From Formosa sp. Hel1_33_131 (GTDB lineage Bacteria; Bacteroidota; Bacteroidia; Flavobacteriales; Flavobacteriaceae), in assembly GCF_001735745.1 (NCBI RefSeq), contig NZ_CP017260.1:210001-242000 (forward strand): DNA of 32,000 bases. The letters are read 5' to 3'. Each line of letters opens with the position of its first letter. Within the stretch, counting starts at the first letter, position 1. Positions 19,111 through 20,490 of this stretch are shown here, one piece after another. Under the pieces are notes generated by a model, which worked only from the letters and a program-made list of their open reading frames with translations, was not told the DNA's origin and did no database searches. The position numbers and the translations under genes were made by a program.

Positions 19111-19563
19111 ATGAAATTAAAAAAAGTAAATGTAAACGTAACGGGCACTTTTAATGTGACCTTAAGTAATGAAAATGGAGAAATAACTCTTAATTCAGTT
19201 GGAGAAATCTCAAGTATAGAACTTGATGGCAACACATCATATAATATTTCTGGAAAAGTTAGTTCTGTTGGAAATATCGTGATTAATTATAATTTATCAG
19301 GAAAAGTTAGCTCTATCGGAAACCTTGTAATTAATTATAATTTGTCAGGAAAAATAAGTTCTATTGGAAATATTCCGGTTAATTACAACTTATCAGGAAA
19401 AGTTAGTTCGATTGGCAATGTAACTATTGGATATAATTTATCAGGAAAGGTTAGTTCAATTGGAAATAATATAATCGGTTATAATTTGTCAGGAAAAGTT
19501 AGTTCTGGAAACAGAACAGTTAAAATAAATGATATAAGCTTTTCTTTAAAAGGTGGCTATTAA
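19111..19563 (+). CDS. Hypothetical tandem-repeat protein (16-residue repeats, predicted beta-rich/solenoid-like)
   Basis: 150 aa, with no signal peptide or TM helix. Residues 44-134 are five full copies plus one partial copy of YNLSGKVSSIGNxxIN. I recognise no family. Confidence 0.7.
   Translation: MKLKKVNVNVTGTFNVTLSNENGEITLNSVGEISSIELDGNTSYNISGKVSSVGNIVINYNLSGKVSSIGNLVINYNLSGKISSIGNIPVNYNLSGKVSSIGNVTIGYNLSGKVSSIGNNIIGYNLSGKVSSGNRTVKINDISFSLKGGY
19240..19512 (+). repeat. In-frame 48-nt tandem repeat, 5 full copies plus 1 partial
   Basis: Units start at 19240, 19288, 19336, 19384, 19432 and 19480. Many differences between copies are synonymous third-position changes (agt/agc, tct/tcg/tca, atc/att, gga/ggc). 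Confidence 0.9.
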
Positions 19564-19596
19564 TTAACCAATAATTTATAACGAGCGTAAAAGACT

Positions 19597-19899
19597 ATGG
19601 AAGTAAAAGAATTATACGATTTAGTAACTAAAGATTTTGACGATAAAATACCTCTTGAAAATATTCATCCACTTCATAAAGCTATGCTTGAAGAATGTTG
19701 TGAAAACGCTTTGAATAATCCTCAAAAAGTTGAGTCACAAGACACATTAAAATATGCGGTGCAAATAGCATTTTTTACTTGTATAGAAACTTTACGTGGC
19801 ACATTGAAAGCTGGACTTGAATTTGCAGACACAGTAAATCTAAATTATAGAAATCAAAGCTTTACTATCACAAAGGATTCACCTTTTCTAAAAGATTAA
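19597..19899 (+). CDS. Hypothetical small protein (100 aa, probably alpha-helical)
   Basis: Begins 33 nt after the repeat-protein gene and ends 3 nt before the next gene. No TM helix or signal peptide. No family recognised. Confidence 0.6.
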   Translation: MEVKELYDLVTKDFDDKIPLENIHPLHKAMLEECCENALNNPQKVESQDTLKYAVQIAFFTCIETLRGTLKAGLEFADTVNLNYRNQSFTITKDSPFLKD

Positions 19900-19902
19900 A
19901 TA

Positions 19903-20490
19903 ATGCCTAAAAAAGGAGTTTTTATAATTGAGAGCCTAGAATTTAGGGATGAAAAACTTGACCGTTATGAAGGTAAATTTCTTTCAAGAATTTTAAAGTT
20001 AGGAGGTGTGAAAACGCAATATTATTATATTCGGACTTCACAGGAATTGGAAGAAGTCCTGAAAATTTTTAAAGAAACAGAATATAGGTATCTTCATTTC
20101 TCATGTCATGGGAGTGAAGAATCTATTGAGACAACCTTAAATTCTATCGATTTTGATTTATTTTCTGAATTTGTAACACCAGTTTTAGACTATAAACGAT
20201 TATTCATATCTGCTTGCTCTTCTGTAAACAAAAATTTAGCAAAGGAATTATTTCCATTTTGTAAATGTTATTCATTAATTGGATTTGAAAACGATGTTTC
20301 TTTTAATGATGCTGCAATAACTTGGGCGTCTTTTTATCATTTGATTCTAAAAAATGACAAGATGAGATATGATAAAATAAGCCCAATATTGGAATCAATT
20401 TCAAAATTATATTCTATACCAATAAATTACTTTCAAGCGAGTCAATCTGCAAAAAGAGGATTTCGATTGAAGAGATTTACTGGAAATTAA
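19903..20490 (+). CDS. Hypothetical protein with a minimal CHAT/caspase-like domain (inferred His-Cys dyad)
   Basis: 195 aa. YRYLHFSCHG (His69-Gly70, codon 20107-20109) and KRLFISACSS (Cys105, codon 20215-20217) each follow a predicted beta strand. Next comes LIGFENDVSFNDAAITWASFYHLIL. The order and spacing mirror the CHAT consensus (lHfatHG ... lvvLSaC ... vvas.w.v.d.aa..f...fY). Pattern match by eye only. Confidence 0.55.
   Translation: MPKKGVFIIESLEFRDEKLDRYEGKFLSRILKLGGVKTQYYYIRTSQELEEVLKIFKETEYRYLHFSCHGSEESIETTLNSIDFDLFSEFVTPVLDYKRLFISACSSVNKNLAKELFPFCKCYSLIGFENDVSFNDAAITWASFYHLILKNDKMRYDKISPILESISKLYSIPINYFQASQSAKRGFRLKRFTGN

Follow-up and report, generated by a model that had tools for sequence, protein, structure and literature searches.

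In the flavobacterium Formosa sp. Hel1_33_131, three small open reading frames (ORFs) lie in tandem on the plus strand downstream of secA, within the 32,000-nt stretch analysed here (positions 210,001 to 242,000 of contig NZ_CP017260.1; hereafter the window). They are designated genes 1, 2 and 3, with gaps of 33 nt between the first two and 3 nt between the last two. The initial annotation had proposed that they may form one conflict module of an abortive-infection or toxin-antitoxin (TA)-like kind, composed of a repeat protein, a small helical protein and a minimal CHAT/caspase-like protease. Each ORF has conserved homologues in other genomes and is therefore a real gene. Neither a transmembrane (TM) helix nor a signal-like N-terminus was found in any of the three products (maximum 19-residue Kyte-Doolittle mean ≤1.02), and the scanned window ORFs around genes 1-3, together with the adjoining flanks, include no TPR, gasdermin, STAND, CRISPR or TIR genes. 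The described arrangement was thus recovered in full, with the secA terminator on one side, a TA-like pair and helix-turn-helix (HTH) genes on the other (Table 1), and the usual partners of CHAT and caspase effectors missing. The proposed module did not survive. We consider it probable, though well short of certain, that the locus represents an insertion after secA, a low-GC island of about 4 kb whose cargo consists of separately mobile small genes rather than a three-gene system: gene 3 would be a mobile, minimal clan-CD protease effector, gene 2 a lineage-specific accessory and gene 1 an unrelated neighbour.

Gene 3 was modelled with AlphaFold2, using 109 homologues as input (predicted local distance difference test score (pLDDT) 94.4; predicted template modelling score (pTM) 0.90). 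The model contains β-strands at residues 3-10, 38-42, 61-67, 99-103, 124-128, 174-179 and 187-192, and α-helices at residues 14-33, 46-59, 110-119, 134-148 and 156-169. Together with a small hairpin, they follow one another in the order β1-α-β2-α-β3-[H69]-small β hairpin-α-β4-[C105]-α-β5-α-α-β6-β7. This order agrees with the description of clan-CD peptidases, in which an α/β/α sandwich is built on a central six-stranded sheet and five major helices, the catalytic His is located at the C-terminal end of β3 and the catalytic Cys at the C-terminal end of β4, and a small β section sits on the β3-α3 loop (PMC4357240). H69 immediately follows the strand 61-67 (β3), C105 immediately follows the strand 99-103 (β4), and the small strands 74-76 and 81-83 lie between H69 and the helix 84-94. 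The sheet and helices correspond as well, as judged from the order of the elements along the chain. The His-Gly and Ala-Cys dyad singled out in the initial annotation is present: H69, G70 and C105 are invariant among the 109 homologues and A104 is conserved in at least 90% of them. E10, E17, E23, R62, R99, S103, C122 and Y145 are also invariant. In a Foldseek search of the Protein Data Bank (PDB), the best matches of the model were procaspase-8, caspase-4, -11, -3 and -7, CED-3 and the CRISPR-associated protease Csx29 (E 4e-5 to 1e-3, probability 1.0), while among the viral models of BFVD clan-CD proteins dominated, including clostripain, metacaspases and caspase-domain proteins. The modelling thus shows a predicted caspase/haemoglobinase-fold (clan CD) protein with the dyad in the canonical positions, upholding the fold proposed at the outset.

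By sequence, the nearest family is CHAT (PF12770), which includes Csx29/TPR-CHAT of the type III-E Craspase and SAVED-CHAT of type III-B, and shares the caspase/haemoglobinase fold with gene 3. The Pfam CHAT match of gene 3 reaches 13.7 bits (E 0.043) against a gathering threshold of 24 bits. CHAT is likewise the recurrent weak match of 80 of the 109 family members, always below threshold (best E 0.0042), followed in frequency by DUF6642, which weakly matches 33 members. When gene 3 was aligned by hhalign with the CHAT protein of locus L018, the motifs of the ‘hhHhs.HG’ and ‘hhhhSAC’ type fell in register (YRYLHFSCHG with FQIIHLAVHG, and RLFISAC with LVTLSAC), although the statistics against this single-sequence template are weak (E 0.014, probability 3%). 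CHAT proteases and gene 3 also have their conflict-island contexts in common. On the other hand, gene 3 is a bare 195-aa domain that lacks TPR, SAVED or any other sensor module, and it has no CRISPR or cyclic-oligonucleotide partner. Peptidase_C14 (PF00656) gave no match to gene 3 at E ≤1 and is not one of the 25 families that the scan of the 109 members lists, and no significant relative was retrieved when the gene 3 profile was compared with the PDB sequences. In agreement with the earlier expectation that no named defence system would be returned, genes 1, 2 and 3 all lack a match to any anti-phage system in PADLOC-DB v2.0.0 (E ≤1) and to NCBIfam, and none matches a named defence system in Pfam. 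No Pfam, NCBIfam or PADLOC model covers the gene 3 family, a search of PHROGs returned no meaningful match, and some UniRef entries already name its members ‘CHAT domain-containing protein’. In the literature, we found neither a description of a caspase or CHAT family whose members stand alone at about 200 aa nor a mention of DUF6642. The family is best described as a new clan-CD family that is nearest to CHAT, but stands outside Pfam CHAT.

The distribution of the three genes over other genomes separates them. Single-sequence and profile searches detected no homologue of gene 1 or gene 2 in any of 80 genome loci that carry a gene 3 homologue. Across the 90 other gene 3 loci, gene 1 was never present and gene 2 was present twice, leaving gene 3 without gene 2 in 88 (~98%). 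Conversely, gene 3 accompanies gene 2 in two of 22 other gene 2 loci and is missing from the remaining 20. Of the loci with the closest relatives of gene 3 (58-76% identity), L081 and L119 also contain gene 2, while L082, L084, L085, L120 and L122 lack it. At the DNA level, homology to L081 covers positions 19570-20510 of the window and homology to L119 covers 19605-20438, in both cases only genes 2 and 3. Homology to L120 and L082 is confined to gene 3 (approximately 19886-20519), beginning about 12-17 nt before its ATG and stopping about 20-30 nt past its stop codon. Gene 1 lies outside every such block. Gene 3 is therefore mobile on its own, without a fixed partner. The gene 2-gene 3 pair was found in three places, with a gap of 3 nt in the window (L095), −8 nt in L081 and 0 nt in L119. 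Since the flanks of the three pairs are mutually unrelated, as are the downstream genes in L081 and L119, the pair moves as a unit within a narrow lineage.

These results bear directly on the idea of a single abortive-infection or TA-like system, in which gene 1 was to be the sensor, scaffold or substrate, gene 2 the inhibitor or adaptor and gene 3 the effector. The common strand, the short gaps, the joint location in a low-GC island and the truly caspase-like nature of gene 3 all fit such a system, but it has become highly improbable. In about 115 related loci, gene 1 homologues are never found with gene 2 or gene 3, nor the reverse; the DNA homology with L081 sets in at 19570, just past the stop of gene 1 at 19563; and some relatives of gene 1 carry secretion leaders. 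The initial annotation had itself named missing co-occurrence in other genomes as ground for giving up the module, and this is what was found. As gene 1 never accompanies gene 2 or 3 and lies beyond all of the DNA homology blocks, the role proposed for it is unsupported. Tight spacing within the island did not mean a functional module here.

Gene 1 encodes a basic β-repeat protein (pI 9.6), and the 16-residue periodicity reported for it is genuine, with the repeat unit x-Y-N-L-S-G-K-V-S-S-I-G-N-x-x-I. In a comparison of its profile with the PDB, 11 of the 13 matches were teneurin YD shells, which are weak (E 0.035-0.25) but in register on Y-[ND]-x-x-G-[KR]-[VI]. One of 16 family members matches RHS_repeat (E 0.052), and two homologues faintly match TEN_YD-shell (PF25023), in each case below threshold. 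The periodic core Y-N-x-S-G-K-V resembles the Y-D-x-x-G-R-L of YD/Rhs/teneurin proteins, so that the unit looks like a compressed YD/Rhs-type hairpin repeat. However, its period is 16 aa instead of about 20, roughly six repeats in 150 aa are too few for a shell, and a toxin domain is lacking. Two further candidates were rejected as non-specific matches due to composition or β-hairpins. One was bactofilin (15 bits). The other was TBP-TOTE, whose match was short and below threshold (11.8 bits against 27; best family E 3.5e-4), and neither a TPR nor an OB gene occurs near the locus, whereas TOTE conflict systems (TPR, OB, TBP, Effector) co-encode TPR, OB/CSD and TBP-domain proteins (PMC12458937).

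The 15 homologues of gene 1 offered two contexts for examination (L087-L089 and L090/L091), both without gene 2 or gene 3. Close homologues either follow a CAP12/PCTIR-type TIR gene at a distance of 260 nt or stand about 420 nt beyond a CRISPR array of 19 repeats that belongs to a Cas9-Cas1-Cas2 locus. On viral contigs, three gene 3 loci and no gene 1 locus were found. Five distant homologues (P0145-P0149) have signal-peptide or lipoprotein-type N-termini, unlike the window copy, which weakens the assumption that the gene 1 family is intrinsically cytoplasmic. Gene 1 is an independent island cargo outside the gene 2-gene 3 cassette.

Gene 2, which matches FORMB_02190 of Formosa sp. Hel1_33_131 at 100% identity, encodes an acidic protein (pI 4.8), modelled as three helices and a β-hairpin (pLDDT 91.3). 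Its invariant residues are H24 and H27 (H-x2-H), E32-E33-C34-C35-E36 (EECCE) and L82-N83-Y84-R85 (LNYR). The model has no significant structural neighbour in the PDB (best E 0.46), and its profile found no significant relative among the PDB sequences. A winged-helix fold was rejected, given that the matches are low-ranked (probability ≤0.28) and the protein is acidic, and the alanine racemase and RICTOR matches obtained from the gene 2 and gene 3 profiles against the PDB are noise (E >0.1). In about half of the gene 2 loci, a same-strand gene directly follows within 0-25 nt, and this gene differs from locus to locus. Such ‘leader’-like behaviour is seen in the window (19597-19899) and in L094, L096, L097, L100, L101, L104 and L108. 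Among the genes that follow are gene 3, those of a SHOCT membrane protein and of a CxxCxxCC protein, and several that are uncharacterized, and in L112 a DUF6088 protein gene stands about 325 nt after the gene 2 homologue. No conserved partner of gene 2 was found among its loci. An AAA ATPase and Peptidase_S8 pair, which we take to resemble the IetAS defence pair, lies upstream of gene 2 homologues on two unrelated contigs (L081 582-3934; L092/L093 1-3122), and one gene 2 locus is near a pAgo-SIR2 system.

These contexts bear on the proposal that genes 2 and 3 form a TA-like pair, in which the acidic gene 2 product neutralizes the protease and its loss or degradation sets gene 3 free. As in type II TA systems, a small acidic protein is encoded upstream of a potentially toxic enzyme, translationally coupled to it in three independent contexts, and the pair is transferred as a unit while the flanks differ. 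Nevertheless, gene 2 is missing beside gene 3 relatives that are just as close (72-74% identity), as it is from all 80 more distant loci, and the existence of such relatives means that the protease cannot be constitutively toxic. Furthermore, gene 2 relatives precede SHOCT-TM, CxxCxxCC or DUF6088 genes, or no gene, and gene 2 has neither a DNA-binding domain nor a known antitoxin fold. We regard a TA-like pair as unlikely. Most simply, gene 2 is a lineage-specific accessory, whose co-transfer with gene 3 is limited to one flavobacterial sub-lineage. The inhibitor or adaptor role originally proposed for it, or an antitoxin-like function toward gene 3, is possible only as an add-on in this lineage (the window, L081 and L119) and cannot be general, considering the unrelated genes that gene 2 precedes elsewhere.

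Gene 3 homologues have varied neighbourhoods in which defence and mobile genes abound. Clustering by blastp of all neighbours within 4 kb yielded no conserved neighbour, nor did a Pfam scan of 77 upstream and 80 downstream neighbours, which returned 82 families upstream and 70 downstream; among those listed, ResIII alone occurs twice (upstream). The defence-related and mobile families include ResIII/N6_Mtase, HD-CE, YhcG, DUF2326, RES, DACNG, SAVED, pPIWI-associated nucleases, GmrSD, SduA_C, CAP12-TIR and SLFN_AlbA_2, as well as integrases and IS66/DDE transposases. A tyrosine recombinase is found near the homologue in five loci. TIR is represented by one CAP12-type protein among the 80 downstream neighbours and is absent from the listed upstream families. 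The conflict context suggested in the initial annotation thus extends, qualitatively, to the family.

Besides the tyrosine recombinase, two associations recur. A short prokaryotic Argonaute (pAgo; MID-PIWI) gene directly adjoins the gene 3 homologue in six loci from two phyla. In the Acidobacteriota (L028, L030, L037 and L016), the homologue lies on the same strand, 13-20 nt downstream of an operon of a SIR2-type (SIR2-APAZ) partner and pAgo, while in the Alphaproteobacteria (L013 and L067) it is convergent with the short pAgo gene across a 9-nt gap. We came across no publication that connects short pAgo systems to an accessory of the caspase or CHAT type. In the second association, a Shedu (SduA_C) gene (L120 3804-5603; L121 162-1961) stops 3 nt upstream of a 74%-identical gene 3 homologue, and in L120 two GmrSD genes follow the homologue and PLDc_2 and CoiA_N genes precede the Shedu gene. 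Other close relatives sit after Abi_C, or after the AAA and Peptidase_S8 pair (L081). These juxtapositions suggest that the family may consist of plug-in executioner or processing proteases, trans-activated by whichever defence system adjoins them (short pAgo, Shedu or others). Published precedents exist in trans-activated bacterial caspases (10.1101/2024.10.24.620036) and in the reported Shedu-CHAT fusions (10.1101/2023.08.10.552793). However, such a neighbour is missing from most gene 3 loci, the diversity of the neighbours is extreme, the pAgo cases represent approximately 2-3 independent events, the protein with its single domain of 195 aa has no evident ligand-binding domain or pro-domain, and no sensor system is adjacent in the window. 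We therefore consider this explanation unlikely.

The gene 3 family is large but thinly spread. A word-indexed search yielded 811 homologues, and an exhaustive profile search yielded 1105 50%-identity cluster representatives at E ≤1e-3, 230 of them at E ≤1e-30. Nearly all members are 190-230 aa long and correspond to the catalytic domain alone. The longest add low-complexity tails, and one (P0278) has a weak TPR_4-like tail (E 0.003). Homologues occur in Bacteroidota, Alpha-, Beta- and Gammaproteobacteria, Acidobacteriota, Chloroflexota, Planctomycetota, Bacillota and Verrucomicrobiota, and among the archaea in Thermoplasmatota, Bathyarchaeota and Thaumarchaeota, typically with 40-55% identity to the Formosa protein. 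Their occurrence is sparse and patchy, with at least 107 confirmed stretches in 185,579 species genomes, a lower bound obtained by a pattern-based scan. A few members are located on plasmids and three IMG/VR viral contigs (L116-L118) have members, while no member was found in GenBank phage records.

Several individual members were also recorded. A 320-aa protein of Myoviridae sp. ctWaE18 (BFVD A0A8S5MXG5) is a true family member (37% identity, TM-score 0.94) with about 125 extra residues. Two distant members of about 32% identity were identified. The one in a 4-kb record of Salmonella enterica (L123, NZ_CP130276.1, 803-1387) keeps the dyad motifs and stands between a divergent HTH regulator gene upstream and an LprI-family gene downstream, and the one on pVPon1 of Vibrio ponticus (L124, 6001-6561) adjoins SIR2 and AAA ATPase genes. 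A Ferruginibacter metagenome-assembled genome encodes adjacent paralogues of 205 and 255 aa (L045 5968-7368), and the Dehalococcoidia chromosome OZ244718.1 has two separate gene 3 loci (L036 and L050).

Caspase-like proteases are recognized executioners in bacterial immunity, and to our knowledge every characterized bacterial immune caspase is wired to a sensor (CRISPR type III-E or III-B, TIR, gasdermin or STAND). The type IV Thoeris caspase and the type III-B PCaspase are promiscuous, Arg-specific, executioner-type proteases, of which the former is activated by a TIR signal and the latter by SAVED-CHAT (10.1101/2024.10.24.620036). Like them, gene 3 is a predicted cytoplasmic His/Cys clan-CD protease of defence islands, and it may plausibly also arrest or kill the cell by cleaving many proteins, with an acidic pocket that hints at Arg/Lys specificity. 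Unlike gene 3, those caspases belong to Peptidase_C14 and depend obligatorily on an activator encoded next to them, a TIR protein or SAVED-CHAT. Type IV Thoeris is characterized by an adjacent short TIR gene, and none is present among the scanned window ORFs around gene 3 and in the adjoining flanks. The orthocaspases and metacaspases (C14B) share the fold and dyad positions, occur in prokaryotes and include several single-domain forms, but no sequence relationship to gene 3 is detectable. Gene 3 is also shorter and, in secondary-structure order only, resembles the six-stranded caspase/legumain-type core more than the eight-stranded metacaspase sheet. In short, gene 3 would act most like CHAT proteases or executioner caspases, yet has none of the partners that define the Craspase, SAVED-CHAT, type IV Thoeris or gasdermin systems.

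On our preferred reading, gene 3 would be an active cysteine endopeptidase used as a conflict effector, and by analogy with the executioner-type bacterial caspases it would arrest or kill the cell through cleavage of cellular or viral proteins. Given that gene 3 has no sensor domain, activation must come from outside the protein. Such control might be exerted by dimerization, as in caspases, by a trigger protein, by a neighbouring system or, in this lineage, by gene 2. More speculatively, the enzyme may prefer Arg or Lys at P1. The conserved acidic residues E10, D16 and E17 (after β1) and D136 (after β5) would lie in the loops that shape the S1 pocket of clan-CD enzymes, in analogy to metacaspases and gingipain.

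Several points weigh against gene 3 as an immune protease effector. Its TM-scores to caspases in the Foldseek PDB search are just ~0.5. The association with defence genes is qualitative. Both protease activity and any defence phenotype are properties that we infer, and most homologues do without gene 2, whose role is proposed as a possibility. Moreover, some homologues reside amid housekeeping genes, such as that of L084 between hemE and an acetyltransferase gene, and bacterial and archaeal members share ~50% identity, more than would be usual for an immune gene that evolves fast. The last two points, together with the failure to match any defence-protein model, would also suit a protease with a regulatory or processing function outside immunity, or a different thiol enzyme built on the caspase scaffold, for which the island location is incidental. 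We judge this quite unlikely, as the family is sparse and patchy, its genomic contexts are mutually unrelated, its members lie near integrases, insertion sequence (IS) elements and defence genes, and they occur on plasmids and a few viral contigs. The effector reading, which we prefer, admits a bolder extension that we offer tentatively, as the chances are clearly against it: the family may be the smallest self-contained caspase-type immune effector known, acting across bacteria and archaea either as a 195-aa one-gene anti-phage system or as a universal plug-in executioner for systems such as short pAgo and Shedu; gene 2 would then be a small acidic controller of a new type in one flavobacterial lineage.

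What emerges in place of the module is a large family of minimal caspase-like proteins, which lacks annotation and is repeatedly linked to short pAgo and Shedu. Since its more than 1,100 clusters consist of the catalytic core alone and have no fixed partner, the question arises of how the enzyme is kept silent and how it is triggered. The family would lend itself to minimal modelling of how caspases are activated and to use as a compact tool protease. As it is missing from the current defence-annotation profile sets, the genomes that carry it are under-annotated.

The island itself is evident from base composition, with a G+C content of 0.28-0.33 across 19-25 kb of the window, as compared to 0.37-0.43 in the flanks. 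An imperfect direct repeat of about 125 nt, present in only two copies in the window, flanks a low-GC block of about 4 kb, which contains genes 1-3, an 82-aa TM ORF, the RelE/HTH pair and a pair composed of an HTH gene and a membrane-protein gene. This repeat-bracketed block after secA looks like an insertion or cassette-exchange site. No integrase was detected among the scanned ORFs of the block and no tRNA gene in the window, the region searched against Rfam (18-26 kb) gave no match, and the island DNA had no match in a plasmid collection.

Table 1. Features of the island and its surroundings (positions in the window; nt)
Feature	Position	Strand	Size or description
Gene 1 ORF	19111-19563	+	150 aa
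Gene 1 tandem repeats	19240-19506	+	48-nt (16-aa) unit, 5.6 copies, 76% matches (Tandem Repeats Finder, TRF)
Gene 2 ORF	19597-19899	+	100 aa
Gene 3 ORF	19903-20490	+	195 aa
H69-G70 codons of gene 3	20107-20112	+	predicted catalytic His, loop after β3
A104-C105 codons of gene 3	20212-20217	+	predicted catalytic Cys, loop after β4
secA	15368-18721		terminator 3' of the gene
secA terminator hairpin	18751-18784		15 bp
Direct repeat (~125 nt, imperfect), left copy	18744-18870	+	includes the secA terminator hairpin
Direct repeat (~125 nt, imperfect), right copy	22784-22905	+	78-81% identity to the left copy
Gp49/RelE-like gene and HTH_3 gene	21201-21843		downstream of genes 1-3
HTH_26 gene	21899-22102		downstream of the RelE-like/HTH_3 pair

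Directly past the right-hand repeat, the stretch 23003-24324 holds two genes. That of an ankyrin-repeat protein (244 aa, five Ank repeats) overlaps by 4 nt with the start of a gene for an outer-membrane β-barrel protein, a pairing that is unusual for a marine flavobacterium.

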